Shown here: positions 5,770 through 64,000 of the stretch, piece by piece
Numbering within the stretch: the first letter of the stretch is position 1
Layout of the letters: each line of letters begins with the position of its first letter
Source: an archaeon
GTDB lineage: Archaea > SpSt-1190 > DYHY01
Direction of reading: 5' to 3'
Assembly: GCA_037442745.1 (NCBI GenBank)
Contig: JBBIPP010000004.1
Location: forward strand, 16,027-80,026
DNA length: 64,000 nucleotides
Translations under genes and position numbers: made by a program
Notes under the pieces: generated by a model
What the model was told of the DNA's origin: nothing
Seen by the model: the letters and a program-made list of their open reading frames with translations, nothing else
Databases searched by the model: none

Positions 5770-5772
5770 TCA

Positions 5773-6546: not shown

Positions 6547-6547
6547 T

Positions 6548-8163: not shown

Positions 8164-8188
8164 TGGGAAAGACAGGCCGGTTTCAGCT

Positions 8189-26356: not shown

Positions 26357-26695
26357 CTATATATTATGCTTTTCCCCGTCAATATACCGCTCAATAAGGC
26401 CTCCCAAATGTATGTGCTTGGCATAGACCCGGATTGCCCATAACTCCCTCGCAATTGAGAGTAGCAAGAGGACAAAGAGCCAAGGAAAGACAAATGTCCG
26501 GAATATTGATAGAAGCTCGGTGACTCTCGAAGCTTCCCCGGAAAAGAAGGAAACAACAACCAAAATGGACAGGAGAACAGTTGCAATTGTAGATGCGATC
26601 GCCAGCCTGTCCGAACCCTCCTTGAACTGCGCGAAATTTGTGTGGGTGCCTTGTGAGCCGGTTTTTGGTTGTTTTTTTGCCATTTTATTTTTCAA
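26357..26695 (-). CDS. 2-TM protein with basic N-terminus and SFFSGEA motif; paralog of 31541..31897
   Basis: 112-aa ORF. KK-rich N-terminus, TM1 ending SFFSGEA, TM2 followed by ARELWAIRVY. Overlaps the upstream gene by 11 nt. Confidence 0.6.
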   Translation of the reverse strand: MKNKMAKKQPKTGSQGTHTNFAQFKEGSDRLAIASTIATVLLSILVVVSFFSGEASRVTELLSIFRTFVFPWLFVLLLLSIARELWAIRVYAKHIHLGGLIERYIDGEKHNI

Positions 26696-27209: not shown

Positions 27210-28186
27210 TGTCTTTTCCTCCTATTATTTCTCACCCAATTTTTCAAGCCGTGTCCCAATTGTCTTGAGTAAATGAAGTGCAGCCCCCTGTTTGTGCTGT
27301 TCGGTTGCGACTGCTTGAGCGAACCGGAATCCCCATAGGAAATGCCCAATTGTCCACCAGAAAGCAATCAAAATGAATATCAGAGTCAGCATTGGTATCC
27401 AGACACCAGAACCGGTTGCCGAGCTTCCGAGAAAAGTCTGGAGCATCTGGACTACCTGCCAATATACCCCGAACCGAGCCCCGAAAAGGGAGAATATTAT
27501 TGCAATCCACATTGCAGTTGTTTTCCTGAAAAAGCCCATCAGATAAATAAAGTCGTAGAGAATGAAGAACATAAGGACGCCCGGCAGGATGTATGCGAAA
27601 ATAACAGTTGACATCGGACTCCCTGTTGTTCCCAAAAGGACGTTGATTATTGTTAGCAAAAACCCGCCAATATCGTTCAGAAAGCCATTTATTGTCCCAG
27701 CATCCAATGCCATATCTTCTTTCTCCTTTTATTTAGATCCCAATTGTTCTAGACGGCTTCCAATCCTGTCAAGAACACCGATTGCACTCTCTATTTTGTC
27801 GCTTTCCTTGTAAACAGCACTGGCAAACCGGAATCCCCATAGGAAATGCCCAATTGTCCACCAGAAAGCCATAAGAATGAATATCAGAGTCAGCATTGGT
27901 ATCCAGACACCAGAACCGGTTGCCGAGCTTCCGAGAAAAGTCTGGAGCATCTGGACTACCTGCCAATATACCCCGAACCGAGCCCCGAAAAGGGAGAATA
28001 TTATTGCAATCCACATTGCAGTTGTTTTCCTGAAAAAGCCCATCAGATAAATAAAGTCGTAGAGAATGAAGAACATAAGGACGCCCGGCAGGATGTATGC
28101 GAAAATAACAGTTGACATCGGACTCCCTGTTGTTCCCAAAAGGACGTTGATTATTGTTAGCAAAAACCCGCCAATATCGTTCAGAA
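26817..28186. repeat. 504-bp-period tandem triplication with near-identical core blocks (about 26817-27134, 27321-27682, 27826-28186)
   Basis: The blocks are identical by eye except for a few substitutions (GCCATAAGAATG vs GCAATCAAAATG). Identity stops abruptly at both flanks. Antisense shadow ORFs are near-identical in all three copies. Confidence 0.9.
27225..27713 (-). CDS. 4-TM membrane protein, tandem copy B
   Basis: 162-aa ORF. Core near-identical to copies A and C (one substitution), own C-terminal tail AVATEQHKQGAALHLLKTIGTRLEKLGEK. AAGGAGA SD upstream. Confidence 0.75.
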   Translation of the reverse strand: MALDAGTINGFLNDIGGFLLTIINVLLGTTGSPMSTVIFAYILPGVLMFFILYDFIYLMGFFRKTTAMWIAIIFSLFGARFGVYWQVVQMLQTFLGSSATGSGVWIPMLTLIFILIAFWWTIGHFLWGFRFAQAVATEQHKQGAALHLLKTIGTRLEKLGEK

Positions 28187-28217
28187 TGCTTACGAATGTC
28201 CCCGAATTTATTGCCAT
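27729..28217 (-). CDS. 4-TM membrane protein, tandem copy C
   Basis: 162-aa ORF. Core identical to copy A, own C-terminal tail AVYKESDKIESAIGVLDRIGSRLEQLGSK. Two TATA-like boxes lie in the 158-bp upstream spacer. Confidence 0.75.
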   Translation of the reverse strand: MAINSGTFVSILNDIGGFLLTIINVLLGTTGSPMSTVIFAYILPGVLMFFILYDFIYLMGFFRKTTAMWIAIIFSLFGARFGVYWQVVQMLQTFLGSSATGSGVWIPMLTLIFILMAFWWTIGHFLWGFRFASAVYKESDKIESAIGVLDRIGSRLEQLGSK

Positions 28218-28375
28218 TTTCTCTTTTCTCCTTTTTTGATTATTTATTCGGCCAGTTCCCTTTATTTTCTCTTTCTAGCATTTATAGTTTGCCGATTTAA
28301 GGGCAGTGTCCAAATAACAGCAACCCCAAAATCCTTAATGGTATTACCACTCGATAATTTATATAGTTTCCCATC

Positions 28376-28936
28376 TTATTTGAACTTGCTGAAAGCTGGA
28401 GCCCAGCCAGAACTTCTCTCAGCCTTTTGGGAATTGACAATTGACTGCTTGTTTGAGCCCTCCCTGTTCCCGAGCCGTGCAGCAGTCTGACCAATCAGGG
28501 TCAATATCTGCCCGCCCCCCGAGAGCTCAGCCAAGCCCTTGGAAGCTGCCCTGGCAGTGACAAACCCTATGAAGAAATTGCTCATGAACCAATAGACAAT
28601 CACGAAAGTGAAGACTGTTATGAACATTGCAATGAATAGTCCTGTTTCCCCGAAAATCGGCTCTAAAAAGAGGGAGTTAACGAATGTGTTATAGTCGTCA
28701 TAAAATCCGAAATGGGCGAACATTAGGGCGAAGACCGCAGCCATTACTGTTGCGGTTATTTTCCTGAAAAACCCCATCAGATAGAAGAGGTCTTCCAGCG
28801 TGAAAAAGACGAGGAGCGCAGGAATTGCATAGAGGAAAATTATCTCATACCAAGGCTGTCCCTTGCCCCCGAAAATCATGTTGAAAATTGTCCAGAAGAA
28901 TTCCGGGACATTGAAATAAAGTTCCTCTCCTGCCAT
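28376..28936 (-). CDS. 4-TM membrane protein, diverged paralog of the triplicated genes
   Basis: 186-aa ORF. AIPALLVFFTLEDLFYLMGFFRKITATVMAAVF aligns with ILPGVLMFFILYDFIYLMGFFRKTTAMWIAIIF. Tail contains ILTLIGQTAARLG. Its ATG overlaps the stop of the upstream 632-aa gene. Confidence 0.7.
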   Translation of the reverse strand: MAGEELYFNVPEFFWTIFNMIFGGKGQPWYEIIFLYAIPALLVFFTLEDLFYLMGFFRKITATVMAAVFALMFAHFGFYDDYNTFVNSLFLEPIFGETGLFIAMFITVFTFVIVYWFMSNFFIGFVTARAASKGLAELSGGGQILTLIGQTAARLGNREGSNKQSIVNSQKAERSSGWAPAFSKFK

Positions 28937-30774
28937 TATTTGTTCCCCCCGAATTTCGAGCCCAAGTTCCTGAAGAATCCGCCAATCGAATTCTTTGCCG
29001 CCCCCAGCACTCCTGCTGGAACAACCCCGATGTCCTTGTTAATGTTGGCGTATTTCCACTTTTCCTGCTGGTTAGGAGTCATGGTTTTTCCTTGCCAAGG
29101 ATTCACCGACTTAATCCGGGTTGTCCAAGAGTCTTTTGCCTTTTCAACAGAGCCACCTATCTCGTCAGTAACATCCCCGAACTTGTCTTTTCCTTTCGAG
29201 ACTTTCTGGGAAATCTTGCCATATGCGCTCGTGCTCTTGATCATTCCGAGGATGAATTTTGGAAGAACGGTTACTGGGAGAGTGAGATAGAGGAAAAGCA
29301 CCCTTATTCCGATTGAAGTCACTATAAGGAGAAGGTAGAAGAGCGCGGCAACTATTGCGTTCATGAAGAGGTCCAGTGGGTTTGCTGGGACGGCTGTCCC
29401 TGAAAGGGGTTTTGCCAAGGAAACAATATAGAGGGTTCCCAAGAACTGGAATGCGAGCCGAATAAGGGAATTTAGGACAGGTATTGGTCCTCCGTTGAAG
29501 GGCAAAAGTATCCAAATAACTACTGGTCTTGGAAGGAAGACTGCCAGGAGAAAGACAGACTTTTCCACAGCGAATGCGACAATCTGCCACATCCAGAACG
29601 CCCAAAAAGTCGCGGGGATTATTGATGCCCAGATGTTGACGCAGCTCGTCGGCTCCCTTACCGGAATATATTCGTAATAGGACGCAATTCCGAAAATATT
29701 CATGCTTGTTGCAAAAGCCACTACAAGAAGAAAGATCCACACATATCCGAGCTCAATTACTGAAAATGCCCTGAAAACGTCGTATATTGTGGATTTTATA
29801 GCTTCCCTTCCGGCAATGGCGCCCTTCTTCGCTCGGAGGCGCTCTGACGCGTCATTGCTTTTGCTTGCGCCGTCACCGGCGCCTCCGGCAACTCCTCCCA
29901 TCAGCCGATCGTCAACTCCGGGAATTCCGGTAGATTTGTCCAAGAACTGGTCGGCAAGATGCGTTGCTTTCTGGACGAAACTGAGCTCGTCATAGTCGCT
30001 GTCCGCAGTTGCCGCGACATCGAGAATTCTCGAGTATTCAGTATCTCCTATTGTGCTTTGGATTACTTCCTTTGCAAATGTTGCCTTCCAATTGTCCGGC
30101 TCGAGGAATTCTTTTTGCAAGTCCTCCGGAGGAGCGGCAAGGGTCTCGAAAAGTATTATCAGGAAAAGAATCCATCCGAAAAGAATCCATGCGGCAATGT
30201 TTGTCGATAGGGTGAATATCACAAAAAAAAGCGCAGCAACTATCTTTATCCAAGACGCATTTTTGAAAGCGAAACGCCCTAGAATCATCAGGACAATCCC
30301 GATTCCGAGGAAAACATAAGAGAGTTCTTTGCTCACATTTATTAGGGGCCTGTCATAATCCGGTCCGCACGCATTCTCAAGCTCGTTTTCCGAAATCCCA
30401 TAGCTCTCGACAACCCTCGGGCCAAAGTTCTCCGGCGGTTTAGCTGGCAGATTGTCCCATTCCCTTGCGGATTGCGTTATCTGCCCGAAAAGTGGGGCAA
30501 TTCCTTTGTCCCAGAATGTCTGAAGTATGCCAAAGAAGCTGTTGTCGCCTACCGAAGAAAAGTCGAGGCAAAGGCCGGTTGTTGTGCAGGATTCGGGGGT
30601 TCCTCCCGTAAGGCCGGACTCTCCGGAAGGATCTCCCCCGTCAATCGGGGAAAGAAGAGGGTCCTCTGAGAATGCCGGGGCAGGCGAAAGAGCAAGAATG
30701 AAAACAAGGGTTAGGATGGGGAAAATTTTCCAAATGCTCGAGAATTCCCATCTCATTTTCCGGGAAGCCCCCAT
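28936..30774 (-). CDS. Large polytopic membrane protein (signal peptide, 8-9 TM, ~120-aa soluble loop, hydrophilic C-tail); start taken at M21 of the 632-aa ORF
   Basis: The ORF runs 28936..30834. ATG 30774 lies about 29 nt downstream of a TATA-like box. Signal-like WKIFPILTLVFILALSPAPAFSEDP, multiple long hydrophobic segments, C-tail KNSIGGFFRNLGSKFGGNK. Confidence 0.75.
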   Translation of the reverse strand: MGASRKMRWEFSSIWKIFPILTLVFILALSPAPAFSEDPLLSPIDGGDPSGESGLTGGTPESCTTTGLCLDFSSVGDNSFFGILQTFWDKGIAPLFGQITQSAREWDNLPAKPPENFGPRVVESYGISENELENACGPDYDRPLINVSKELSYVFLGIGIVLMILGRFAFKNASWIKIVAALFFVIFTLSTNIAAWILFGWILFLIILFETLAAPPEDLQKEFLEPDNWKATFAKEVIQSTIGDTEYSRILDVAATADSDYDELSFVQKATHLADQFLDKSTGIPGVDDRLMGGVAGGAGDGASKSNDASERLRAKKGAIAGREAIKSTIYDVFRAFSVIELGYVWIFLLVVAFATSMNIFGIASYYEYIPVREPTSCVNIWASIIPATFWAFWMWQIVAFAVEKSVFLLAVFLPRPVVIWILLPFNGGPIPVLNSLIRLAFQFLGTLYIVSLAKPLSGTAVPANPLDLFMNAIVAALFYLLLIVTSIGIRVLFLYLTLPVTVLPKFILGMIKSTSAYGKISQKVSKGKDKFGDVTDEIGGSVEKAKDSWTTRIKSVNPWQGKTMTPNQQEKWKYANINKDIGVVPAGVLGAAKNSIGGFFRNLGSKFGGNK

Positions 30775-30797
30775 ATCTGTCTTTTTTAGCTCTTTCC

Positions 30798-30844
30798 AAT
30801 ATAAATAATGTCTCCCGAGTGGGAAAATTGGCAAAGTATAAAAG
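30798..30844. promoter_or_regulatory. Back-to-back TATA boxes of the divergent membrane-locus operons
   Basis: AATATAAATAAT (30798-30809; reads ATTATTTATATT on the minus strand, about 29 nt from ATG 30774) and GTATAAAAG (30836-30844, about 34 nt from ATG 30874). Implies leaderless or short-leader mRNAs. Confidence 0.45.
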
Positions 30845-40020: not shown

Positions 40021-40842
40021 CTACTTACCAGAAAAAAGGTGCTTTCTTTTCGGGCATATTTCCTGATATTCGCAGTATTCGCACAGCTTGCTCTCGTGCG
40101 CCGGAAACTCCTTTGCGCCCCTTATTTTTTCAACAAGCTCTGCAGTCCGTTTTCCGAGCTCCCTAAGTTCCCTGTCAGTCCTCTCGGAGCGAAGCTCTTT
40201 TCCGAAAACGAGGAAATGCCAGACAAGCCTGACTTTTTTCGCGTCCGGATACTGCCGCTTGACTGCCATGGCATAGAGCGCTAGTTGCCTGTCCGAATCC
40301 AATTCCTTCTGGCTCTTCAGCCGGCTGTTCGTTTTGTAGTCGTGTATTTCGTAAATGCCCTCTCCTCTGGAAGAAAGCCTGTCAATATAGCCGATTAGCC
40401 TCTCCCCTCCCGGAAGAAGGACAATTACCTTCGCTTCAAGGCCGATTGTTGTCCCTTCATTGTTGAATGGGGAATGCTCCGAATAATAGTCCCTAATACC
40501 CCGCTCACCGAGCGCCCTGTAGCTCTCAACCGAGAGGCAATCTCCCTCTTTTGCAACAAATAGTTCCTCTCCTGCATTTTCAATTTCCGAAAGAGAGGAG
40601 GTCCAGATTTTGTTGTAATACCCGGCTAGCTCTTCCAGGGAAAGGAGGCGCCCGATCTGGAGCGTTTTGTAGAGATGCTTCAATGCCTCGTGGACGCGCT
40701 TTCCCATGAACTGCTCAATTGTTTCCGATACTTCTACTTGCACCTTGTCAATATACCTGAACTTGAACTTTAGGGGGCAGGACTCGTATGTGGAAATCCG
40801 CGAATTGGAGAAAAGCGTCCAACGGGATTTTTGCTCAGCCAT
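40021..40842 (-). CDS. Cas4/RecB-like PD-(D/E)XK exonuclease with 4-Cys cluster (stand-alone, no CRISPR nearby)
   Basis: 273-aa ORF. N-terminal Cys (YESCPLKFKFRY), nuclease core IDRL...EIHDYKT, C-terminal CEYCEYQEIC. Confidence 0.75.
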   Translation of the reverse strand: MAEQKSRWTLFSNSRISTYESCPLKFKFRYIDKVQVEVSETIEQFMGKRVHEALKHLYKTLQIGRLLSLEELAGYYNKIWTSSLSEIENAGEELFVAKEGDCLSVESYRALGERGIRDYYSEHSPFNNEGTTIGLEAKVIVLLPGGERLIGYIDRLSSRGEGIYEIHDYKTNSRLKSQKELDSDRQLALYAMAVKRQYPDAKKVRLVWHFLVFGKELRSERTDRELRELGKRTAELVEKIRGAKEFPAHESKLCEYCEYQEICPKRKHLFSGK

Positions 40843-42196: not shown

Positions 42197-42335
42197 TGGG
42201 GCTTATTTTCCCCGCCAATATTAAAGAATTTCTGGGAAATTTCGGATTATTCCCCTTCAAAATGCTCCGTTTTGCGGAAGGAGCGTTTGAACTGCTCAAT
42301 GTGGAAATTGTTAAATATCCCCAAAAAAGGCAATA

Positions 42336-45300
42336 ATGTGTTTGGAAACGGTGGCAGAAAGAAAACTCTCTTTCTTAGGGATTTCCTTATTTTTAGCCCT
42401 TAATCTGTCCTTGTTGTCGTTTTCCCTATTTTCCGGCTATTCCGCCTTTGAAATAACCCTCATTTATCCGGAAAATCTCTTCTGGACGAATCTTGACAAC
42501 TTCTCATTGAATTTCACTTTCAATGCTACTAGCGACATCGATTCCGGAGGAGTGTGCTCCCTATATCTCGGAGATGCGGTTGTCGGGACAGTCAATGCGA
42601 CGAACTCGACTCCCGCAAACATAACTTCAGTGGCAGCGTTTTCTCAGGGGAACAACACTTGGCTAATATCCTGCACGAACTCGACAACTGAGAACTCTTC
42701 TGTTTCGATTTTCAGGTATGATGGTGTTGCGCCTGCCGTCTCTTCTCTTTCTCCAGCAGTTTCATATTCCACAGCAGTCAATGAAACAAATTTTACTGGA
42801 CAGGCAACTGACGCATTTACAATCTTCTCGCTTTCATTGTGGGGCAATTTCACCGGAACTTGGGCCATGAATTCCTCCAACATCTCATATTTGAACGGAG
42901 CCAACTGGACAGTTTCCCCGGGCGCTCTGAGCGAAGGAGTCCATCTCTGGGCGTTTTTTGCGAACGATTCTGCAGGTAACGGGAATTTTTCAGAGAACAG
43001 GACGCTTGTTTTCGACTATACTCCCCCAACCAATTCCCCACTCTTCCCGGACAACCAGTCTTTCAAGAGTTCTGCCCTCCCCAATTTCTCATTTGCAGTC
43101 TCTGATGCGCTCTCCGGAGTCTCCTCATGCAGGGCGCTAATTGGGAACTCGACAGCTAACTATACCAATTCGACAATTTCTCCATCCCAAGGCTGGTGCA
43201 ACTTTACCAACTTTTCCCTCTCAGGCCTCCAAAGCGGGCAATACGCCCTTTTCTTCAAGGTCAACGATTCCGCCGGAAACGAGGCTTGGAACAGCACAAT
43301 TTCACTGAATGTCGACGACATTGCCCCCCAAATCTCCTATGTAATCCCGAACAACACAATTTTCCTCTCGAACGCATCATTTACAATTTCCTTCGGCGAA
43401 TCAGCGAACCTCTCCTGGATTGCGAATTCGACTGGAAACATCACCAACTCTACCGGTGAATCAATCTCAGTCAATTCCCACCTTCCCACAGGAAACTACC
43501 AATGGACTGTTTTCGCAAGGGACTCTGCCGGAAACAATAACAAGACAACATTCAATTTCACTGTGAACCGCACTAGGCCGTTCGTCAATTCAACCATTCC
43601 AGCTGACGGCTATTATACGAACGATTCCACAGTCAACTTCACTTTCAATGTGACTGAGGAAACAAACTCCTCAATGTATTGCGCAGTCCATCTCGACGGC
43701 GTCCTTAACGCGACAACCGCGAACTCCTCAGTCCTGAACAACACTCTTACAACAATATCAATTCCGGGAATTGCTTTCGGTTACCACACCTGGCGGGTTT
43801 CCTGCGCTAACTCTGAAAACACAACCTATTCGGAGACCAAGGATTTCGATGTGAGGAATGTCAACGCTTCATCTCTCGATTTTCCCTCATATGTCCCACG
43901 GAACAAGGTCGTTTACCTGAATGCGTCCGTCCTAGCTTTCAAGAATTCGGAGAACGTTACCCTCTCAGTCTCCCTTCCATCAGGATTTTCAATTCTTTCG
44001 AACATAACTGATGCCTCCAACTGGACAGGTTCAGCGTCAGTCTGGAACTCTGCCATTCCATCTGGAAGCTCCCTTTGGCTCAATCTGACAATCCTTGTTC
44101 GGAACAACGCGTCTCTTGGGAGCTCTTCAATAACAATAACTGCCAACTCTTCCGAAGGGCACGGAGTCTCAAAAAAGCTCTCTTTCTCAGTTCTCCAGCC
44201 ATCATCTAACCTGACTTTCTCTCCGGCCCAAATCAACCTGACTGCCGAAAAATCAGTCAACCTAACTCTTCCGAACAACGGAACTGGGAATATCACCTCA
44301 TTCAATCTGACATTCAATCCAGCTTATTTCAACATAACGAACGCCTACAACCTCTCCTCCGGGTGGTTCTGCAACCACGCTTCCTTCTATCTGAACTGTT
44401 CCGGAGGTGGGATTGTCCAAAATTCGTCCGCTCTCTTCAACCTCTACCTGAAAGCCGGGACATCTGATGGAAACTCCACCGGGACAGTCCATCTTTACGA
44501 CTCCCTCGGCGGGAATTCTACTGTGAACTTCTCCGCCCCGGAAATCCTGAAAATTGGGGTTGTTTCCTCCAATTCGACAAGGACCTTAACTAGGAACGAA
44601 ACAAACTCAAAGTCATTCACCCTGAATTTCACGAGCACGGGAATTCTTACGCCGAACACTTTCAACGGGACATTCTCGCCAGTCAATTTCACCTCGCTTA
44701 ACGTCACCGGATATGGGGGGAACCTGACTTGCTTCAATTCAACTTCAACATCCCACCCTTCCGCCCCGAACACTTCATTCTACTGCAACGGAACATCCGG
44801 CTATGTAACTTTCCGCTTGACAGCGAACTCCTCCGCTCTCGGGATAACTCAGGGGGCTTTTGTCTCATCAAACGAAACTACTTCAAGCTTCGCGCTCGAC
44901 CCGCTCAATTTCACAATCCAAAAGGCTCCGGAAGTGACAATCTTAATTGACGCGAGCCCGACATCAGTCTCAATCGGAGGTTCCACTGCCCTATTGGCGG
45001 AGATAATAAACTGCTACGGCTCGTCCTATTGCGCAAACATCGTGAACGCTGCCGCAACCTGGAGCGTTATTTCCTCGAGCGGGACATGCTCCAGCACATT
45101 CACAAATCCTTCCTACTACTTCAGTCTCGAATCAAGGACGCCCGAAAATACGACAGTTGAATACAACACAGGCCAGCAGACAAAGGCGGTCGCCTCGGTT
45201 GCGAGCACCTGCATTTACACAATGTCATTCACCGGCCTTGACGCGAACACGGGGGCGAACGTCACATCAGTTTCCGTCACCACAAAGACAGTCACTGCGG

Positions 45301-46274
45301 TGAATTCGACGACAACTACGACCGTTGCTCCGGAAAACCCCTCAATTCCTCCGGTCGTTTCAACCCCAACCCTTTCCCTCACACTCTCACCTACATCCCT
45401 TGCTGTGACAAAGGGTACTTCAAGGACAATAACCGCGACAGTCCGGCTTACCGGCCCTTCCCTTTCCACTGCGCTCTCCCTTTCGGCGAACGAGACTGGC
45501 ATATACGCAATATCAATCTCCCCTTCTTCGTTTTCAAGCATATCTAATGCAACTTCCCGGAGCTTTACAATAACTTTGACTGTTCCCTCCACAACAGCCA
45601 CGGGCTCAAGGGCTGTGAAATTCACCGCAACCTCCGGCTCTTACTCGGCGAACGCTGTCCTGACTGTCCTAGTTCTCGATAGTTCGACAGCTGGGAACCA
45701 GACTGTCAATGCAACGAACAGCTCAGTTTCCGATTCAACTGCGAACAATACAAATTCTTCAGGGGGCGGGTCATTGGTGGCGAACGTCACAGCGCCGAAT
45801 ACCACAAAGGAGCTTGAAAGCGCGCTTCTGAAATTGGGCCTTCTTTCAAAGGAGCTAGGCGCCTTCAGCCTAGAGGGCGAGAACACCACAATTGCGAGCG
45901 AGCTTGTCCTGAATGCGACTGAACTGCTGAAAAAGGCCTCGGACGCCCTCCTTCGGGGGAACATGTCAGAATACGAATGGTTCCTCTCTGCTGGAAAATC
46001 GGCGCTCTCCAAGGCAAGCGCGCAGGTATTCTCAATAAAGGTGAGGCGGGCGTGGCCAATACTCCTCTATTCATTGGGAGCAGTCCTCTTGATTGGCCTT
46101 GTATCTGCAGGAGCATATGCAATTCTCTCTGGAAAGCAGGCAATTCTTCCGAAAAGAGCGACAGTTGCCGGAACGAAAAAGGAGATTACCTCAGTTCTCG
46201 AAGAGTTTTCAAGCGAGATAAAAGAGCCCTTGGAAAAGAAGAAAAAGGCGAAAGATGAAGGGAGGTCTTTGTAA
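42336..46274 (+). CDS. Giant surface protein (S-layer/adhesin-like) with repeated beta-sandwich-type modules, very many N-x-S/T sequons, helical stalk, C-terminal TM anchor
   Basis: 1312-aa ORF. N-terminal signal anchor, recurring DSAGN...D..P module ends (ANDSAGNGNF, VNDSAGNEAW, ARDSAGNNNK), C-terminal WPILLYSLGAVLLIGLVSAGAYAIL plus a charged tail. Confidence 0.85.
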   Translation: MCLETVAERKLSFLGISLFLALNLSLLSFSLFSGYSAFEITLIYPENLFWTNLDNFSLNFTFNATSDIDSGGVCSLYLGDAVVGTVNATNSTPANITSVAAFSQGNNTWLISCTNSTTENSSVSIFRYDGVAPAVSSLSPAVSYSTAVNETNFTGQATDAFTIFSLSLWGNFTGTWAMNSSNISYLNGANWTVSPGALSEGVHLWAFFANDSAGNGNFSENRTLVFDYTPPTNSPLFPDNQSFKSSALPNFSFAVSDALSGVSSCRALIGNSTANYTNSTISPSQGWCNFTNFSLSGLQSGQYALFFKVNDSAGNEAWNSTISLNVDDIAPQISYVIPNNTIFLSNASFTISFGESANLSWIANSTGNITNSTGESISVNSHLPTGNYQWTVFARDSAGNNNKTTFNFTVNRTRPFVNSTIPADGYYTNDSTVNFTFNVTEETNSSMYCAVHLDGVLNATTANSSVLNNTLTTISIPGIAFGYHTWRVSCANSENTTYSETKDFDVRNVNASSLDFPSYVPRNKVVYLNASVLAFKNSENVTLSVSLPSGFSILSNITDASNWTGSASVWNSAIPSGSSLWLNLTILVRNNASLGSSSITITANSSEGHGVSKKLSFSVLQPSSNLTFSPAQINLTAEKSVNLTLPNNGTGNITSFNLTFNPAYFNITNAYNLSSGWFCNHASFYLNCSGGGIVQNSSALFNLYLKAGTSDGNSTGTVHLYDSLGGNSTVNFSAPEILKIGVVSSNSTRTLTRNETNSKSFTLNFTSTGILTPNTFNGTFSPVNFTSLNVTGYGGNLTCFNSTSTSHPSAPNTSFYCNGTSGYVTFRLTANSSALGITQGAFVSSNETTSSFALDPLNFTIQKAPEVTILIDASPTSVSIGGSTALLAEIINCYGSSYCANIVNAAATWSVISSSGTCSSTFTNPSYYFSLESRTPENTTVEYNTGQQTKAVASVASTCIYTMSFTGLDANTGANVTSVSVTTKTVTAVNSTTTTTVAPENPSIPPVVSTPTLSLTLSPTSLAVTKGTSRTITATVRLTGPSLSTALSLSANETGIYAISISPSSFSSISNATSRSFTITLTVPSTTATGSRAVKFTATSGSYSANAVLTVLVLDSSTAGNQTVNATNSSVSDSTANNTNSSGGGSLVANVTAPNTTKELESALLKLGLLSKELGAFSLEGENTTIASELVLNATELLKKASDALLRGNMSEYEWFLSAGKSALSKASAQVFSIKVRRAWPILLYSLGAVLLIGLVSAGAYAILSGKQAILPKRATVAGTKKEITSVLEEFSSEIKEPLEKKKKAKDEGRSL

Positions 46275-46276
46275 AA

Positions 46277-47326
46277 ATGGATTCTATTGAGAAAAAAGCC
46301 CCGCACACATTCTCAATTATATCTGGAAAGGGCGGGGTCGGAAAGACGACAGTCACATCCAACCTTGGAATTCTTCTGGCCTCGGAGTTCGGAAAAAAGG
46401 TTCTTGTTATTGACGGAAACATCAGCACAGCGAACCTCGGGATACATCTGGGCTTCATAAAGTGCCCTGTCTCATTCCAGGACGTCATTGACAAGACAAT
46501 AAAGACTTACCAGGCGGTTTATGTCCACAAATCAGGGCTTAACATAATTCCGGCCTCCCTTTCAATGGAGCACGAGCAGCACGACTATCCGGCGAACCTT
46601 CTTTCAAAAAGGATACAAAAGATTGTCTCAGACGTCAAATTGCACTATGACATTGTCCTGATTGACGGAGCAGCGGGGATTAGCGGAGAGGCAAAAGCCG
46701 CGATTTCCGCGAGCGAATCAGTACTGGCAATAACTGTTCCGGAAATTCCGACAGTCACCGCCACAATAAAGGTTGTCGAGACTGCAAAAGAGCTAAAAGT
46801 CCCTGTTTTCGGGATTGTAATGAACCGCGTCAGGGGGGGAAAAATCGAGGTTTCAAAAGACGAGATAGAGCGCCTCTGCAAAGCAAAGGTAATATGCATT
46901 GTCCCGGAGGATGAGGCTGTCCGGGAGAGCACGTCCCATAGGGAGCCTGTCTCGGTCATACGGCCAAACTCGGCGTCAGTCAAGGAGCTCAGGAAGCTTG
47001 CGGGGAAAATTGTTCTGGCATCCGAAGGAAAATCAGAGGATTGTCCGGCGCCAAAGCCGAAAGGAAAATTGTTATTCGGGATTTTCGGGAAAAAGAGGGT
47101 GGCTCCGGAAAATTTGCTTCTCTCACAGGGAAACGATAAAAAGGCGCAATGGGCTCTAGCTCCCTCTCAAGGAAGCCAAAAGGAGGGCAGGGAGTCAGAG
47201 GGGGATCAGATAGAGTCAGGGCATAGCAGGCCCGCGAAATCGGACCCTAGGAAAGACAAGGAAAATCCGGGGAAAATTGATGGAAAGAAAGGATGGTGGT
47301 TTTGGTTTTTTGGGCGGAAGAAATGA
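46277..47326 (+). CDS. minD: MinD/ParA-family P-loop ATPase with long disordered C-terminal extension ending in an aromatic-basic tail
   Basis: 349-aa ORF. Deviant Walker A SGKGGVGKTT, LIDGAAG Walker B region, C-terminus KKGWWFWFFGRKK. Starts 2 nt after the upstream stop. Confidence 0.85.
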   Translation: MDSIEKKAPHTFSIISGKGGVGKTTVTSNLGILLASEFGKKVLVIDGNISTANLGIHLGFIKCPVSFQDVIDKTIKTYQAVYVHKSGLNIIPASLSMEHEQHDYPANLLSKRIQKIVSDVKLHYDIVLIDGAAGISGEAKAAISASESVLAITVPEIPTVTATIKVVETAKELKVPVFGIVMNRVRGGKIEVSKDEIERLCKAKVICIVPEDEAVRESTSHREPVSVIRPNSASVKELRKLAGKIVLASEGKSEDCPAPKPKGKLLFGIFGKKRVAPENLLLSQGNDKKAQWALAPSQGSQKEGRESEGDQIESGHSRPAKSDPRKDKENPGKIDGKKGWWFWFFGRKK

Positions 47327-50300
47327 GCTCCCTTTTCTTTCGGTAATTTTTGCACTTATTCTGGTGATTTCCCCGGCAGTTTCTCTCGGGGAAATATACA
47401 ATTCAACCCTTGAATTCTTCTATCCCAACGGGACTTCTGTCCAAAACCCGAACGGCGGGCAGAGCGTTGTCCCGATTCTTGTCCTCTATGTGAAGAATGC
47501 GGACGCTCCGGCTCCGGCATTCAATCTCACTGGAATAGAGGTTTTCGTGACAAACTCCTCCTTGGCAATCCCCCAGTGCTACAACTGGAATTTGTGGGGC
47601 CTTGACCAGACCGAGCCCCAGAGGCCAAACAACACTTATTCCCACGGAAACGGGTATTCAGTTTCAATCGGAGGCCCTTTAACACCCGAAGGCTGGCTTG
47701 TTTCGACGAACGCTTCGATTTCATGCAACCTTACGTATCTCAATCTCATCAACCAGTCGAATCCCCTGAACCTGACAAATGTCTCCAAATGGAACTTTAC
47801 AAAAGGCTATCCTCTGTCAAACGTCTCGTCTTGGAACGTTTCAGGCAACAACACATATTCTCCAGCGTTCGTTGTCCGTTTCGGAGGAATTTTTGGCAAC
47901 ACAATCCTTCTTCCTTATGAGAACACTGTTACGCTGGTCTCCCGGGGATTGTTCTCCAACGGAACGCACACCGAATATACTGGCAACGTCACGAGATCTT
48001 TCAGGGTTCTTTTCCCTAATCCCTCTTCCCGGTTTTCGGCGCTCCCAAACGCGTCAGTTGAAATTGGCTCGTCAGTTGAGCTCTTCTCAATTAACACAAC
48101 CGATTCTTCAGGAGTTCCATTCAACTCGTCAAGAATAGTCTTCAACGTTACGAACTCTTCCGCATTTTCCTCCGTTTATGTTCTCAATTCATCAAGTGGG
48201 TTTGTTTCAGCGAACTCCTCCTTTTCCGAAGGCGCCATCTCCCTTTCCCTTGGAAACTTCACAGGTCCCGGGAACTTTTCCGTAATTGGGAACTTGTCTT
48301 CGACCGCGCAGATATCCTCGTTCTCACTGGCGTTCTCCCCCAGAGGGGGCCTCGAATATCTAGCACCTGTGAATCTTGACCCAGTAAATTACACTTATCT
48401 CCCCTCTCCGCTCGCATGGAACTTTACTGATGCGAATTCCTCTTCCCTCGACCGCACAGTCCAGATTTCTGGATATTCAGTTAATTTCTCCTATTCAATC
48501 CCAAACTTTTCAAGGGCCCAGACAAAGCAGTTCAACCTGACAATTGTCCCTCTTTCCGGAACTCCGAAATACCACCTTATTTCGCCGGTTTCTGGATTCA
48601 CAATTGCCGGAGCCTCCGTCGCATCAGGGAACGGGAGTTGCTTTAGGAATTCGACAACGCTCGCCACCTGTTTTTCAAACAACCCAGGCAACCTGACAAT
48701 TTCAATAAACGCGACGGCCTCCGCAGTTTCCGGGAAAAGCAACTGGTCAATCCAGTCATTCAGCGAATTCGGAGCCAGCTATGCGAATTCTTCGGCCTTT
48801 GAAACCGAGTCACAGGGCCCGGCAATTCTAAACGTCACCTTAATGACCCCCCTTCCGCCGAACTTGACATTGGGCCAAACCGGTGTATCTGTGACTTTCC
48901 TGGTAAATAACACCGGGGAAGCAAGGGCACTGTCAGTCCAGCCGAATGTCTCAATTGCGCATTCCAACTCGAGCCTCCCTCCAATTGCCCCTCCCGCTCT
49001 TTCCCCCCTTTCAATTGACCCCAATTCCTCAGTCACTTTCAAGGTTTCCTTCTCAATACCCGCAAACTACTCTCCCGGAAATCTCTCGGTTTTCCTCAAT
49101 GCGACCGGCCACGACGCAAACCTGCTCTCAATTGTCTCCTCCACGGCAAATTCTTCGAACGCAACGGTTCTCAGGCCGGCAACGGCAATTGTCTCAAAGG
49201 CAGAGCTTTCTGTGACGCAAGGATACCTTTCAAGGAACTATACAATATCAGCGTCAATCCTAAACCTTGGGGAGAGTCGCCTGAAGGAAATCGGATATTC
49301 GATTTCCCCGAAATCCCTTGGAATATCGACAGTCTCTCCCAAGTCTTCCCTTCCGGAGGCGGAAATTGGGGGATTTTCTAACTTTTCAATCCCTATTGAA
49401 ATATCGAGCTCGGCTCAAAATGGAAATTTCTCGTTCAACCTGACAATAACTGGGAAGGACTCTTCCTCCCTCGCGACAATATCAAATTGGACGACAATAA
49501 ATGTCTCAATAGAAAATCCCCTGAAAATGTCCCTTGTTCCGGAGAACCTTACATATTACGATGTAGAGGCAGGAAAGGAGTTGAACCTCTCAGTTCTCCT
49601 CTCTTCAATTGACGGAGTGGAAATATCTGGAGTTTCCCTCTTGTTTGGCAACTCTACCGCCTTTAGCATATCTCCCATTTCCGCAATAAACGTCTCCGGA
49701 GAGGTTTCGACCATCAACTTTTCGCTTTCCCCCCTCGAGAACGCGACAACTGAGAACAAGACGCGCATCGTCTCAATACAGGCAGTCTCCTCAGGAGGGC
49801 TCAGGTCAGACGCAGTATTGCTCACGCTTTACACAATCCCAAAAATAATCTGTGGCGGAAAAAACGAGGCCTGTTGCGTTGCCAGAGCGTTGGTTTCGGA
49901 ATGCAAAGAAGGCAACCTGTGCTGTTCGGGGACCTGCCGTCTGGCGTCCGAAGGAAAATGCTGCTCAGCAATCTGGAAGCCCTCCTTCCTCTGCTGTGCG
50001 GATGCTGATTGCGGGGAGAATGAGATATGTGCTCTCAACAACGGAACCTGCATAACAAAGCCTTTCGGGGAGCATGAGGCAAACAAACTCCTATCAAGTC
50101 TTTCTGTCAAGCTAAACGATCTTGAAAAAAGAATAGCTGACTCCAAGAAAGGGGGATTTAACACGGAAAATCCCGAAACAATACTCCAGGCAATTGACCT
50201 GAAAATGAGGCAGGCAAGGAACCTGATAACTGAGAAGAAGTATCTGGACGCGAAAAAATTGATTGAGAATACCGAAACTCTCCTAAAGGATGCGGAAACC

Positions 50301-50828
50301 GCTCTCGCATCAGCCCCGAAAAAGCCTTCCGGGCTGGCATTTGCCCTCCTTTTCCTCTTAATTCTGGTAATTGGTGCCGGAGGGGCAGGATTCTACTACA
50401 TGCAGAAAGACAGGGCCGGATTTTCACTGAAAATGAAAATAATGGAAAATGGGATGTCTAAGATTTTCAAGGAAGGGCTGAAAGAGTCCGGAAAATCGTC
50501 CGCCCCCATTTCAAAGCAGGCGCCCCAGCCAGCATCCCAAAACAAACCAGTCCAACAAATTCAGCAGCAACAGCCCCAGATGTTCCAAAAGTTTCCGGTT
50601 TCGCCCCAGCAGCAGGTTGCACAGCTCTATTCTCTATCTCCAGGACCATATTACTCACAGAACCGCTCGTTTTTCTCGCCAGCCCCCGCCCAATATTCCC
50701 AGCAAAGAGGGGTGTATTTTCCCCAAGCCTCTCCCCGGCTCTCCCCTCAGAAGGGAGCTGGATTCTCGGGAGGTGTGTCAGGAGGATTCTCTCTCCCGGC
50801 GTCAATTCAGCAGAAAAAGAAATTCTGA
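47277..50828 (+). CDS. Giant surface protein 2: signal anchor, sequon-rich ectodomain, Cys-rich module, helical stalk, TM anchor, Q/P/Y-rich cytoplasmic tail
   Basis: 1183-aa ORF overlapping minD by 50 nt. LSVIFALILVISPAVSLGE signal, Cys-rich segment 49851-50051, TM GLAFALLFLLILVIGAGGAGFYYM, tail rich in Q/P. Confidence 0.85.
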   Translation: MMERKDGGFGFLGGRNELPFLSVIFALILVISPAVSLGEIYNSTLEFFYPNGTSVQNPNGGQSVVPILVLYVKNADAPAPAFNLTGIEVFVTNSSLAIPQCYNWNLWGLDQTEPQRPNNTYSHGNGYSVSIGGPLTPEGWLVSTNASISCNLTYLNLINQSNPLNLTNVSKWNFTKGYPLSNVSSWNVSGNNTYSPAFVVRFGGIFGNTILLPYENTVTLVSRGLFSNGTHTEYTGNVTRSFRVLFPNPSSRFSALPNASVEIGSSVELFSINTTDSSGVPFNSSRIVFNVTNSSAFSSVYVLNSSSGFVSANSSFSEGAISLSLGNFTGPGNFSVIGNLSSTAQISSFSLAFSPRGGLEYLAPVNLDPVNYTYLPSPLAWNFTDANSSSLDRTVQISGYSVNFSYSIPNFSRAQTKQFNLTIVPLSGTPKYHLISPVSGFTIAGASVASGNGSCFRNSTTLATCFSNNPGNLTISINATASAVSGKSNWSIQSFSEFGASYANSSAFETESQGPAILNVTLMTPLPPNLTLGQTGVSVTFLVNNTGEARALSVQPNVSIAHSNSSLPPIAPPALSPLSIDPNSSVTFKVSFSIPANYSPGNLSVFLNATGHDANLLSIVSSTANSSNATVLRPATAIVSKAELSVTQGYLSRNYTISASILNLGESRLKEIGYSISPKSLGISTVSPKSSLPEAEIGGFSNFSIPIEISSSAQNGNFSFNLTITGKDSSSLATISNWTTINVSIENPLKMSLVPENLTYYDVEAGKELNLSVLLSSIDGVEISGVSLLFGNSTAFSISPISAINVSGEVSTINFSLSPLENATTENKTRIVSIQAVSSGGLRSDAVLLTLYTIPKIICGGKNEACCVARALVSECKEGNLCCSGTCRLASEGKCCSAIWKPSFLCCADADCGENEICALNNGTCITKPFGEHEANKLLSSLSVKLNDLEKRIADSKKGGFNTENPETILQAIDLKMRQARNLITEKKYLDAKKLIENTETLLKDAETALASAPKKPSGLAFALLFLLILVIGAGGAGFYYMQKDRAGFSLKMKIMENGMSKIFKEGLKESGKSSAPISKQAPQPASQNKPVQQIQQQQPQMFQKFPVSPQQQVAQLYSLSPGPYYSQNRSFFSPAPAQYSQQRGVYFPQASPRLSPQKGAGFSGGVSGGFSLPASIQQKKKF

Positions 50829-61383: not shown

Positions 61384-64000
61384 TCAGTTCTGTCTATTCT
61401 GCTGGCCCCGGCCGAGTTTCGCGTAAAACACAATTGAATATGCGAATGCAAGGATTAATGCGAATATCAACATCGGCACTTTCAGGCCAATTTTGATTTC
61501 TTTGAGGTCATTTTCGGACTCTTCGTTTTCAGGCAATCCGTCGGGCATATTCGGCCGGGAATTCAGGGAGATAACGGATATTGCAAAAGTTGAGAATCCC
61601 GGGCTCTCTGATGTGTAGAAAAAGTGCGTTCCGTTCGTCCCGGTAATTGTCGCATTCAATATGAACCAGCCTTTGGAACCTGTCGGATTCCTCAAAAGGA
61701 CTACTTCGGAAGGGTGCGCTCCTATTGAGCGAAGCCAAGATTCTTCGACTGAGAACCTAAAAGTTGCTGAAAAAATTTCCTCCGGATTCGTGGAGTTGGC
61801 AATAAACCCGGAGTATATCTGGGCTTTTATGATTGACAAGTTCTCCTGTAAAGGCGCGATTTTGATTGTTGTCGGATTTTTCAAGTCCCTGAAAGAGAGA
61901 GAAACTGCTTGGAGAAACGGCGTTCCGGAAAGATTTGGGACGAGTTCAATTGGCTTTTTTGATTCTGTTCCCCGGAAAATAAAAGTCTCGAAAACCCCGT
62001 TTTCCCTCCTTTCGCGGTTGGGGCTGTATTGCTCATTTACCCCGGGGTGTTTGGGCATTTTTTCGTGGTCGGAAATCGGAACGGATGTTGATATGAAAAA
62101 CCTGCTTACGCTCGAAGAGCCTCTGTTGGAAGATACTGTTGTCGTTGTCGTTACCTGAATTGTCGATGTTGTTGTTGTCTGGACAGATGTTGTCGAGGTA
62201 GTCGGGCATCCGCAGTCGCTTGCGCAGTCGCATGCAAGTTCACCTGTCTCGCAGAATCCGTTCCCGCAAACAGGGCTTGTGGTGAAATTGAACTGGCAAT
62301 ATGCTGTGTTTGAAGCTCCGTATTTGACTGACAAATTGAGAGTGTGGTTTCCCGCAAGGGGCGCGGAAAAATTCAGGGAAAAATTCCCATCTGCCGACGA
62401 ATTGGACTGGACTGTCCCGTTGAGCGTTCCGGGAGAAACTGACCAATTGACTTGCGCACTAACCGGAACAGCGGTTCCGTTCAAATAGTCGAGGAGAGCC
62501 AAGCCTGAAACAAAAAAGTTTTCGGTTGAATTTGCGCTCACTGGCAGAGTAACGTTCTCAATTGTCGCATTCGCCCGTTCGAAAACCGAAAAATGTGCTG
62601 GAAGGACTGGGGAAATCGAATCCCCTTGCCAGAACTCTTGATGCTCGGTTATGCATCCTGTTTCCGGGCAGAAAGCGGAAAAATTTGAGCTGTTTGAGAA
62701 ATATGCAGAGAAATTTGAAAGATTCAGGCTAGTGTTCAGAAAAACCGAAAAAACGGGAATGCTCCCGTTCAACTTCTCCGAAGATTCCGAGAAAATCACC
62801 CATTCAATTCCTGTCCAATTCGTTGAGGAGGCGTTCTGGGACAATATTGTTATGCTAACGTTTTCATCCCCTAGAAATGCGCTCTCAAAGGAAAATGTGG
62901 GCGGAAGGGCGAAGCCAGTCTTGTTCGCGAAGAAAGTCCCGACCCCCCTTCCAAAGGTCGCGTTTGTGGAAGCGGAAAGCGTCAGGTTGGAGGAATATGC
63001 CGGGAGAATTTGAAAAGTCGCGTTCTCCAGTACGGAAAATCCAAGATATGTGCAGTTCAAGGAGGCGTTCAGTTCCCCGGAAGAAGCGTTTGTCGCGTTC
63101 CATTGGAGGAATTCCAAGGAGACGTTTCCGCCTTCCAAGAAAGCAATGGAAGAATTGGAAAGAATTGTGTCGCCGAGGACGTTTCCGGTGCACGAGGCTC
63201 CAGACAAATCAACGCCTGTCGGGCGAAGGACTGCGGAAAATGTCACGTTTTCATTCAGCCAGACGGAGGAGTTTCCTGCCGAAAAAGATGCGATTTCGAA
63301 CGGCTCAAAGCAGGAAAGTGAGAGGTTCTTTGATTCTGTCAGGTTCGCGAAATCTAGGCGCGCCGAAAAAATTTGCGTTCCGTTGATTGGGCACGATGCG
63401 CTGAACGAATGGCTTTCCGCTCCTTGGGCCGATGAAACAAGTCCTCCTGAAGAATTGAAAACCGAGAAATTTCCTGCGCCAAACAGGGAAGATAGGGAAA
63501 ATGACCCGTTCTCCCAGATATTCCGTTCAAGAGCCTCGCCAGAAGTGGCATTAAGGATGCTCGAAGATGCCCTAATTGACAAGTTCCCGGAATTTCCGGA
63601 CACGAACTTTACTGCCAAATAACCAGTTCCTGTAAAGTTCGGGAAATATGAGAATGATTCGTTCGAGCCAGTCTCGTTTGAAACTGACCGGTTTAGGATT
63701 GACGGCCTTCCGTATTGGTCGGGCGAGCCAGAATAGAGGAAAACGTCAGAATCGGTTCCTGAAGATCCTGCAAGGAAAAACATGGCAGTAGAATTTGCAA
63801 CGAGCGAAACCTTTCGTGCGAAAACTTTCCTTCCTGCGTTCTCGTTCGAGAGGGAAAAGTTAGCGCCAGTCCCGTTCAACGTCAGATTGTAGAGAACTGA
63901 TTCGAGGGCTCCGTCAATATTCATCCTGCCATAGCCCTCATAGTTGTCAGGTTCTCCCCTGTTGAGGACTGGGTTATAGAGACCGTTCTCCCGGAGCCGG
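61384..64000 (-). CDS. Large sequon-rich surface protein, 5'-partial (frame open to the window edge); Thr-rich linker, Cys-rich knot, C-terminal TM anchor
   Basis: The track ORF starts at M 63924, but the frame continues without a stop to 64000 (..NRGEPDNYEGYGRMNIDGAL, reminiscent of the end of a subtilase catalytic domain). CGNGFCETGELACDCASDCGCP, TTSTTSVQTTTTSTIQVTTTTT, TM MLIFALILAFAYSIVFYA. Confidence 0.8.
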   Translation of the reverse strand, partial: RLRENGLYNPVLNRGEPDNYEGYGRMNIDGALESVLYNLTLNGTGANFSLSNENAGRKVFARKVSLVANSTAMFFLAGSSGTDSDVFLYSGSPDQYGRPSILNRSVSNETGSNESFSYFPNFTGTGYLAVKFVSGNSGNLSIRASSSILNATSGEALERNIWENGSFSLSSLFGAGNFSVFNSSGGLVSSAQGAESHSFSASCPINGTQIFSARLDFANLTESKNLSLSCFEPFEIASFSAGNSSVWLNENVTFSAVLRPTGVDLSGASCTGNVLGDTILSNSSIAFLEGGNVSLEFLQWNATNASSGELNASLNCTYLGFSVLENATFQILPAYSSNLTLSASTNATFGRGVGTFFANKTGFALPPTFSFESAFLGDENVSITILSQNASSTNWTGIEWVIFSESSEKLNGSIPVFSVFLNTSLNLSNFSAYFSNSSNFSAFCPETGCITEHQEFWQGDSISPVLPAHFSVFERANATIENVTLPVSANSTENFFVSGLALLDYLNGTAVPVSAQVNWSVSPGTLNGTVQSNSSADGNFSLNFSAPLAGNHTLNLSVKYGASNTAYCQFNFTTSPVCGNGFCETGELACDCASDCGCPTTSTTSVQTTTTSTIQVTTTTTVSSNRGSSSVSRFFISTSVPISDHEKMPKHPGVNEQYSPNRERRENGVFETFIFRGTESKKPIELVPNLSGTPFLQAVSLSFRDLKNPTTIKIAPLQENLSIIKAQIYSGFIANSTNPEEIFSATFRFSVEESWLRSIGAHPSEVVLLRNPTGSKGWFILNATITGTNGTHFFYTSESPGFSTFAISVISLNSRPNMPDGLPENEESENDLKEIKIGLKVPMLIFALILAFAYSIVFYAKLGRGQQNRQN

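Follow-up and report, generated by a model that had tools for sequence, protein, structure and literature searches.

An extended archaeal MinD paralog encoded between two giant predicted membrane glycoproteins in a DPANN-type genome

We analysed a stretch of 64,000 nucleotides of archaeal DNA (GTDB lineage SpSt-1190, DYHY01; GenBank assembly GCA_037442745.1, contig JBBIPP010000004.1, positions 16,027 to 80,026 of the forward strand), referred to here as the window, in which a gene for an ATPase of the MinD family is found between two genes coding for giant surface proteins, which we named G1 and G2. A divergently oriented gene, coding for a membrane protein that we named P448, precedes G1. The ATPase is an additional, C-terminally extended paralog of the archaeal MinD family, and the association of such paralogs with giant type-I membrane proteins recurs in four types of gene neighbourhood, which suggests that the ATPase may act on the cytoplasmic tails of the proteins encoded beside it.

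Organisation of the G1-MinD-G2 locus

The G1 stop codon ends at 46274 and the MinD ATG starts at 46277, leaving a gap of 2 nt, and a GGAGG Shine-Dalgarno sequence at 46261-46265 lies 11 nt 5' of this ATG. The G2 gene may start with the TTG at 47277, in which case it overlaps the 3' end of the MinD gene by 50 nt, or with its second codon, the ATG at 47280, which is the start used in the 1182-residue database entry and reduces the overlap to 47 nt. A preliminary description of this DNA had reported a tight coupling of the three genes, by a 2-nt gap and a 50-nt overlap, and this is exact for the gap and holds for the overlap within the 47-50 nt allowed by the choice of start codon. As there is no space for internal promoters, the three genes are most simply regarded as one transcription unit, i.e. 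a single operon (Table 1).

In the divergent intergenic region a TATA-like A/T-rich box, TTAAATAT, is present at 42311-42318, 18-25 nt 5' of the G1 ATG, and a second one, TTTAATATT, is found on the minus strand at ~42217-42225, 21-29 nt 5' of the P448 ATG. The positions of the two boxes, which may act as promoters, would fit short-leader or leaderless transcripts. The window is chromosomal, with genes for ThrRS, Kae1, KsgA, glycogen metabolism, ribonucleotide reductase, 5S rRNA and tRNA-Leu, and from end to end it shows an even base composition.

Table 1. Features of the locus and their positions in the window.
Feature	Coordinates	Strand	Description
P448	40850..42196	minus	448 residues; open reading frame (ORF) confirmed
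Divergent intergenic region	42197..42335	none	139 bp; read from the sequence
G1	42336..46274	plus	1312 residues; ORF confirmed; candidate type-I surface glycoprotein
MinD ATPase	46277..47326	plus	349 residues; ORF confirmed
G2	47277 (TTG) or 47280 (ATG)..50828	plus	1183 or 1182 residues; ORF confirmed

The giant proteins G1 and G2

Both giants have the features of type-I membrane glycoproteins, with an N-terminal anchor, an ectodomain enriched in N-x-S/T sequons, a single C-terminal transmembrane (TM) segment and a basic tail, the glycosylation itself being predicted. In G1 the signal anchor spans residues 10-34 and the TM segment residues 1238-1267, followed by a cytoplasmic tail of 45 residues, and in G2 the corresponding segments are 16-42 and 1014-1043, followed by a tail of 140 residues that is rich in Q and P. 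Basic residues come after the C-terminal TM segment in both proteins, as in a positive-inside tail. The number of sequons is 95 in G1, compared with 34.7 ± 4.6 in shuffled sequences, and 64 in G2, compared with 19.0 ± 4.1.

G1 carries Ig-like Big_13 repeats at residues ~40-500 (Pfam, E = 6e-8) and, as judged from its sequence and alignment, probably a helical stalk at ~1150-1237. In a database of 5.8 billion proteins only 4 are related to G1 over at least 80% of the query, and the other matches involve just the N-terminal Ig repeats. G2 also has only 4 relatives in this database, and no Pfam or NCBIfam match. Its AlphaFold2 (AF2) model, which rests on 4 sequences and was used for secondary structure only, has a mean predicted local distance difference test score (pLDDT) of 41.7, with a predicted beta-rich region over residues 250-850, three predicted helices at 931-1010 (pLDDT 65-76), a TM helix and a tail helix. 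Apart from generic arrays of beta-sandwiches in tandem (TM-scores 0.1-0.2), a Foldseek search with this model retrieved nothing. The stalks measure ~75-85 residues, somewhat less than the ~100 residues initially ascribed to them.

Just outside the stalk, G2 displays a module of 16 cysteines (~856-930) that the alignment places in all orthologs, including the 998-residue protein of locus L095, and that has no match in Pfam. Its pattern is CGG..CC...C..G.LCC..C....GKCC..W....CC...C....C....C, with nucleotides 50006-50066 coding for residues ~910-930. This module is probably a disulfide-knotted or metal-binding neck connecting the ectodomain to the stalk.

The two giants had been described as sharing one plan, and anchor, sequon-rich ectodomain, stalk, TM segment and tail are indeed common to both, but homology between them is not detectable (BLASTP E = 0.18), and a paralogous origin was ruled out. 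They diverge fast, with identities of 38% (G1) and 34% (G2) where that of MinD is 65-67%. In the G1 tail, a motif with the sequence VLEEFSSEIKEPL and the consensus VLxxF[SA]xE[IV]xEP (in loci L001, L004, L005, L006 and L095) is kept where the stalk and TM segment are only 23-40% identical, and is predicted to be amphipathic (hydrophobic moment, muH, of 0.57).

The ATPase belongs to the archaeal MinD family

The protein encoded between the giants scores 207.5 bits with the archaeal MinD model TIGR01969 (minD_arch), above the cutoff of 201.75, and 113.7 bits with the bacterial MinD model TIGR01968, for which the cutoff is 212.9. Its best PDB match is A. fulgidus MinD-1 (1hyq, E = 2e-41), and Pyrococcus MinD (1g3q, 1ion) and then bacterial MinD are also retrieved, so that its initial designation as a MinD-family ATPase is borne out. 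The deviant Walker A motif, GKGGVGKT, is found at residues 17-24, and K18, K23, D46 and D130, which are the signature lysines and the switch/Walker B aspartates, are invariant in the alignment of the MinD clade (A1).

Several other assignments were considered and rejected. The preliminary description had named clustering with ParA proteins, together with a cognate ParB, as one case against its proposal; the partition model NF041546 (ParA_partition) gives 48.6 bits vs 180 and RepA 31 vs 348, and no ParB-like gene is adjacent to MinD, its neighbours being surface proteins. An FlhG/FleN identity was discarded since FleN structures match with E = 8e-17 or weaker, vs 2e-41 for archaeal MinD, and no motility genes were found in the window when most of its ORFs with 150 residues or more were scanned against Pfam. 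For the bacterial tyrosine kinases (BY-kinases) the scores are 34.3 vs 108 (TIGR01007) and 40.1 vs 230.65 (TIGR03018), and the C-terminus is devoid of a Tyr cluster; for Get3 the score is 28.9 vs 135 (TIGR00345). Weak matches were also obtained with ArsA_ATPase (24 bits), the BcsQ model (67 vs 158) and the CpaE-homolog model (25 vs 154). No MinC- or MinE-like gene is adjacent.

The ATPase core comprises residues ~1-250, and is followed by the sequence KLLFGIFGKKR at ~263-275 and then by a low-complexity extension of ~75 residues, ending in GWWFWFFGRKK. The short members of the family end, at the position of KLLFGIFGKKR, in an amphipathic membrane-targeting helix (for instance FWWKIKRFFRL or FSRRMARLFGKIFG), and a basic-hydrophobic motif resembling a membrane-targeting sequence (MTS) is present directly after the core in relatives as well. 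The sequence of the extension varies even inside the MinD clade.

Giant proteins are linked to extended MinD paralogs in four neighbourhoods

In order to follow the conservation of this arrangement, a check that the preliminary description had proposed, we compared the gene order around related MinD genes (loci and proteins are designated by L and P numbers, respectively). L001-L006, with MinD identities of 88-65%, and L095, with 48%, contain the G1-MinD-G2 trio, and the PGI and HIT genes that flank it are kept as well. Being confined to the lineage of the window, this conservation shows vertical inheritance only. The relatives are DPANN archaea. The contig of the syntenic locus L006/L177 bears the name Candidatus Micrarchaeum sp. 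DR5_63_9, and many of the MinD matches come with the labels Aenigmatarchaeota, Nanoarchaeota, Pacearchaeota or Woesearchaeota.

An extended MinD is also preceded by a giant type-I protein, encoded just 5' of it on the same strand, in three more neighbourhoods, whose flanking genes are unrelated. The giants of all four neighbourhood types comprise an ectodomain, a helical stalk, a C-terminal TM segment and a cytoplasmic tail, are at least 702 residues long and are separated from what follows by a gap of ~100 nt at most. In L008/L009 a giant of 1467 residues precedes a MinD of 433 residues (P0009), which is itself followed by a canonical MinD of 259 residues. In L011/L012 and L093 the giant has 1411 (or at least 702) residues, the MinD 420/432 residues, and a small type-I stalk protein comes next. 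In L094/L179 the order is a giant of 1435 (or at least 1542) residues, a type-I protein of 420-425 residues, a MinD of 397/366 residues, a small coiled-coil protein (117 residues) and a type IV pilus cluster. This last type is an exception to direct adjacency, the 420-425-residue protein being placed between the giant and MinD. The context of L179 was predicted from the tree and then borne out; as this locus is syntenic with L094, it does not count as an independent case. A further extended MinD, P0014 of L010, has a giant-type protein 2.4 kb away, not adjacent.

The giant linkage is thus observed in 4/5 extended lineages, vs none of the 22 loci with short canonical MinD proteins (21 archaeal loci from GTDB and L181), where no adjacent same-strand giant was found (Fisher p = 2.8e-4, the independence of the lineages being approximate). 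The arrangement recurs in related genomes, and neither this synteny check nor the family assignment of the ATPase refutes the proposal of the preliminary description. In a neighbour-joining tree one clade contains the MinD proteins of the window, L008 and L011 types, and those of the L094 type belong to a different clade; the second MinD encoded in L008 is placed among the canonical short proteins. The giant-linked MinD is an additional paralog, since the genome GCA_043803745.1 encodes both a giant-linked MinD (L004) and a canonical one of 254 residues (L017). The association with giants follows the extended paralogs specifically.

The control set consists of the canonical MinDs retrieved from GTDB with the MinD alignment, a scan that gave no other kind. 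Single-protein scans of GTDB with P0017 and P0009 retrieved no archaeal relatives, and a metagenome scan with the alignment of the MinD clade returned generic P-loop patterns, the best among the matches listed being 37% identical.

Two further observations concern the short MinD proteins. An ORF of ~146-155 residues on the same strand precedes many of those from DPANN archaea (L018, L021, L022, L024, L025, L028 and L071), and may code for a conserved partner of the housekeeping MinD. In L181, at 6838-8202, a gene for a KaiC/FlaH-like ATPase (PF06745, DUF7504) comes before that of the short MinD P0025, which is flanked by a T2SSE/T2SSF pilus cluster and an S_layer_C protein, a context that fits the published association of MinD with type IV pili.

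A segment shared by a MinD extension and a giant's tail

A segment of 52 residues in the extension of the L008 MinD is homologous to one in the cytoplasmic tail of the giant of this locus, with 44% identity (E = 1e-9). The segment includes a motif of ~25 residues, YKxG[LF][IL]SKE[ST]YEELK, which is also present in a cytoplasmic protein of 721 residues encoded upstream, so that its carriers in this locus are the products of 3279-5444 (721 residues) and 5563-9966 (the tail of the 1467-residue giant) and the extension of P0009. Two copies of the motif are found in the extension of P0014 (L010). The motif may be a short shared oligomerisation module, and the segment suggests a physical link between MinD and the tail. 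A resemblance of the motif to the SHOCT domain was not confirmed, as no SHOCT match was obtained in Pfam at E <= 0.05.

Possible role of the extended MinD

The gene arrangement, the family of the ATPase, its paralog status, the recurrence of the pair and the shared segment of L008 were established in this analysis. The reading that we favour, which is plausible if still short of probable, is that the extra MinD paralog engages the tails of the co-encoded type-I glycoproteins at the membrane and clusters or positions them. In such a mechanism, MinD would be a specialised archaeal paralog serving the single-pass glycoproteins encoded with it, and its ATP-bound dimer would attach to the inner membrane face via the basic-hydrophobic motif that follows the core. 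There it would engage the cytoplasmic tail of G1, and possibly that of G2, and the glycoprotein spikes would be clustered, positioned or released in an ATP-dependent manner, so that they might form a patch, be confined to a pole or be kept away from the division plane. Membrane binding, tail binding and any such spatial outcome are what we infer from sequences. We favour this role because of the operon, the intact MinD family features, the recurrence in four neighbourhoods and the status of extra paralog, and also because of the shared L008 segment, the G1 tail motif, the MTS-like motif after the core and the precedent of MinD4 (see below).

Several findings weigh against it. The sample is small, with 4/5 lineages and some of the contigs coming from unclassified metagenomes, and no orthology relates the giants of one neighbourhood type to those of another, which makes the link a matter of architecture and not of one conserved protein pair. 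In the window, the MinD extension has no motif in common with the tail of G1, G2 or P448. Tails and ectodomains are about equally conserved (41-53% vs 42% in G1, and 36-38% vs 33-45% in G2), and a higher conservation of the tails was rejected, the signal being marginal and limited to the G1 motif. The MTS-like motif has only a modest helical hydrophobic moment (0.39), and the terminal GWWFWFFGRKK is given little weight, because it is encoded inside the G2 overlap and is kept only in the 88% ortholog. Finally, two related MinD lineages, L094/L179 and L181, adjoin type IV pilus genes, and the true cargo could thus be a pilus machine.

This last point leads to the main alternative, in which MinD, as a member of the FleN/MinD group (arCOG00589-like), would be an accessory regulator of a type IV pilus, i.e. 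a type IV filament (TFF) system, with G1 and G2 as pilus-associated adhesins or S-layer-like accessories and the core genes located elsewhere. T2SSE, two T2SSF genes and a pilin gene come immediately after the L094/L179 module, P0025 of L181, a short member of the clade, adjoins T2SSE/T2SSF and the KaiC-like ATPase, and the Ig-like Big_13 repeats of G1 also agree with this possibility. Archaeal FleN/MinD ATPases have been tied to type IV pilus loci (PMC4858521), a link that the preliminary description had left out of account, and in TFF subsystem 4G a MinD-like ATPase and large adhesin-like proteins rich in Ig domains are always present (bioRxiv 10.64898/2026.04.22.720090). However, the Pfam scans, which covered most of the window's ORFs with 150 residues or more, revealed no T2SSE, T2SSF, pilin or prepilin peptidase, and such genes did not turn up in L001-L006, L008 or L011. 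In addition, G1 and G2 have ordinary signal anchors and a C-terminal TM segment instead of class III pilin-type signal peptides, and the segment shared by extension and tail in L008 is left unexplained. On balance we find a pilus function unlikely. MinD could also couple envelope growth to division, by marking or avoiding the division plane, with G1 and G2 as the main envelope glycoproteins (S-layer-type or SlaB-like) and their co-transcription serving only to match expression. The classic archaeal S-layer or stalk protein is built from a signal peptide, a heavily N-glycosylated ectodomain, a coiled-coil stalk and a C-terminal TM segment, MinD was historically described as a protein of the division site, and the extreme sequon density and fast evolution of G1 and G2 are those of exposed envelope proteins. 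Nevertheless, this role is quite unlikely, given that neither giant matches an S-layer family in Pfam or NCBIfam (S_layer_N/C, TIGR01567 and similar), whereas the characterised Micrarchaeota S-layer protein has S-layer N/C domains (bioRxiv 10.1101/2021.04.28.441871). For a housekeeping role a better candidate is the canonical short MinD that related genomes also encode, and haloarchaeal MinDs are dispensable for division, the divisome being positioned by a separate Dip system (PMC13228585; PMC11588486).

A fortuitous or purely regulatory neighbourhood, in which a MinD paralog was captured in operons of abundant surface proteins in tightly packed small DPANN genomes and is coupled to these proteins neither physically nor functionally, would account for the lack of orthology between the giants of the four neighbourhoods. 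Surface glycoproteins are common, the window itself holding, besides G1 and G2, a sequon-rich protein of at least 846 residues, and only a handful of loci make up the sample. Still, giant-type genes represent ~5% of the genes (3/~55 in the window), which makes four independent same-strand adjacencies very unlikely by chance, and the absence of the arrangement from all the canonical MinD loci, its tracking of the extended paralogs and the shared L008 segment likewise render this explanation improbable. A role in biogenesis, either in Get3/ArsA-like targeting of C-terminal anchors or as a BY-kinase-like regulator of glycan or polysaccharide export of the CapA/CapB kind, would be compatible with the common SIMIBI P-loop class of these proteins, and the logic by which a tail activates the ATPase in CapA/CapB resembles a contact between tail and MinD. 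Weak matches exist as well, to ArsA_ATPase and, at 29-40 bits, to tyrosine autokinase models. The low scores with TIGR01007 and TIGR00345 and the absence of a C-terminal tyrosine cluster make this role very improbable, and G1 and G2, with N-terminal signal anchors and huge ectodomains, are Sec-type type-I proteins and not tail-anchored clients.

Returning to the engagement of the tails by MinD, a more specific form of it, in which single-pass glycoproteins are gathered by their tails, at the expense of ATP, into a defined patch, such as a host-attachment zone, and the surface is patterned from the inside out, is conceivable and more doubtful. The preliminary description had considered the giants to be adhesins that are placed at a host-contact site, and we found no support for either part of that proposal.

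P448 and other genes of the window

P448 has a signal anchor at residues 3-32, a second hydrophobic segment at 375-399, with the TM segment at 377-398, and a tail of 49 residues, and its sequons are not enriched (5 vs 3 expected). Its AF2 model (pLDDT 76.8) predicts an extracellular GIFT domain, a single helix of 75 residues (300-374) and the TM segment. The N-terminal domain of IFT52 (5fmr) was retrieved both by Foldseek (E = 4e-12, TMt 0.72) and by a profile search against the PDB (E = 1e-8). In Pfam, members of the P448 family match DUF4350 (22/27), GldG-type ABC_transp_aux (20/27) and, weakly, OST48_N (6/27). The family is small, with 51 representatives among 1.84 billion proteins, and P448 is better conserved than the giants (68-71% vs 34-38% for G1/G2).

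The ending in stalk, TM segment and tail that P448 had been said to share with the giants is present, in the form of the long helix, the TM segment and the 49-residue tail, but its membership of the MinD module was rejected. A homolog with 47% identity, in L178 of another metagenome-assembled genome, has neither G1 nor MinD nearby within the contig, and for this reason P448 was treated as a neighbour and not as a component; it is probably outside the conserved module, and a neighbour in the window's lineage only. In OST48 a luminal GIFT domain is followed by a single C-terminal TM segment and a short tail. P448 is laid out like OST48/Wbp1, and stands beside two sequon-saturated proteins; the OST48_N matches in its family are few and weak, and no AglB/STT3 gene was seen in the window.

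A PD-(D/E)XK/Cas4-like nuclease (PDDEXK_1, E = 1e-36) is encoded directly downstream of P448, at 40021-40842 on the minus strand, and has kept this position in L001 as well as in L006; CRISPR or cas genes were not noticed around it. The sequon-rich surface protein counted above is encoded at 61384-64000 on the minus strand, with 6.4 sequons per 100 residues and a C-terminal TM segment at 807-838. Its frame is open at the end of the window, so the protein is longer than 846 residues, and it has only weak local similarity to the giants of L008 and L011. On the minus strand at 26685-28936, four tandem genes code for proteins of 162-186 residues, each with 2 or 3 detected hydrophobic segments at near-identical positions (~32-63 and ~98-129); two of them were scanned, with no match in Pfam. 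An adjoining gene (28936-30834) codes for an 8-TM protein of 632 residues, which is also without a family match.

Implications

It is well known that MinD/ParA ATPases are encoded in the operon of an organised envelope structure, and that extended archaeal MinD paralogs (MinD4) exist. A literature search did not find, for DPANN archaea, a recurrent stand-alone set that combines a giant type-I glycoprotein with an extended MinD and a second membrane protein. MinD/ParA ATPases are general positioning engines of prokaryotic cells, and new cargoes have opened cell-biology work; DPANN archaea, in turn, live attached to host cells. The operon is a testable candidate for the organisation of the DPANN contact surface, as it provides an ATPase, tail peptides (the VLEEFSSEIKEPL motif and the L008 segment) and a prediction of co-localisation.

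If inside-out patterning were true, individual type-I surface proteins would be a new class of MinD/ParA cargo, and this would be the first inside-out mechanism of surface-protein placement in archaea. If instead the link runs via type IV pili, the known association of MinD with pili would be extended to DPANN archaea, and likely pilus-associated adhesins would be identified. The gene-order evidence is solid, and the function is what we infer; the organisms are uncultivated and the loci are few.

Comparison with known systems

The closest comparison is with Haloferax volcanii, where MinD4 positions the archaella and the chemosensory arrays (bioRxiv 10.1101/2020.04.03.021790). Like MinD4 and MinD2, the MinD of the window belongs to the archaeal MinD family, has a deviant Walker A motif and is an extra paralog (bioRxiv 10.1101/2020.04.03.021790; PMC11588486). 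The haloarchaeal proteins are not needed for division, and they also resemble the window MinD in having a C-terminal extension beyond the core, with a motif of the membrane-targeting type (a putative one in the window MinD), and in the presumed cargo spanning the envelope. In contrast, the window MinD is encoded in an operon between giant glycoproteins, in a DPANN-type archaeon, and the sequence of its extension is unrelated; genes of the archaellum or che genes did not turn up in the window.

Among the archaeal type IV pilus/TFF loci with FleN/MinD ATPases (arCOG00589, arCOG05608), which include subsystem 4G, a MinD-like ATPase is likewise encoded beside large surface proteins with Ig folds (PMC4858521; bioRxiv 10.64898/2026.04.22.720090), whereas the window and most of the related loci yielded no TFF core gene. 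Subsystem 4G of the TFF systems belongs to the Thermoproteales (bioRxiv 10.64898/2026.04.22.720090). The giants of the window differ from its proteins in being TM-anchored type-I proteins with cytoplasmic tails, which bracket the ATPase.

The overall plan of G1 and G2 is that of SlaB of the Sulfolobales, tetrabrachion of Staphylothermus and the haloarchaeal S-layer glycoprotein, which have a Sec signal, an N-glycosylated ectodomain, a helical stalk and a C-terminal TM segment. G1 and G2 are set apart from these proteins by their tails of 45 and 140 residues, the 16-cysteine module of G2 and the absence of an S-layer family match.

Finally, in TadZ/CpaE (Tad pili), BcsQ (cellulose synthase), FlhG (flagella) and ParC (chemoreceptor arrays), the ATPase is encoded in the operon of the structure that it localises. 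The locus described here is similar in that an ATPase of the MinD/ParA fold is found within the operon of its presumed envelope cargo, but there a multi-subunit machine is localised, whereas here the cargo would consist of two single-pass glycoproteins.

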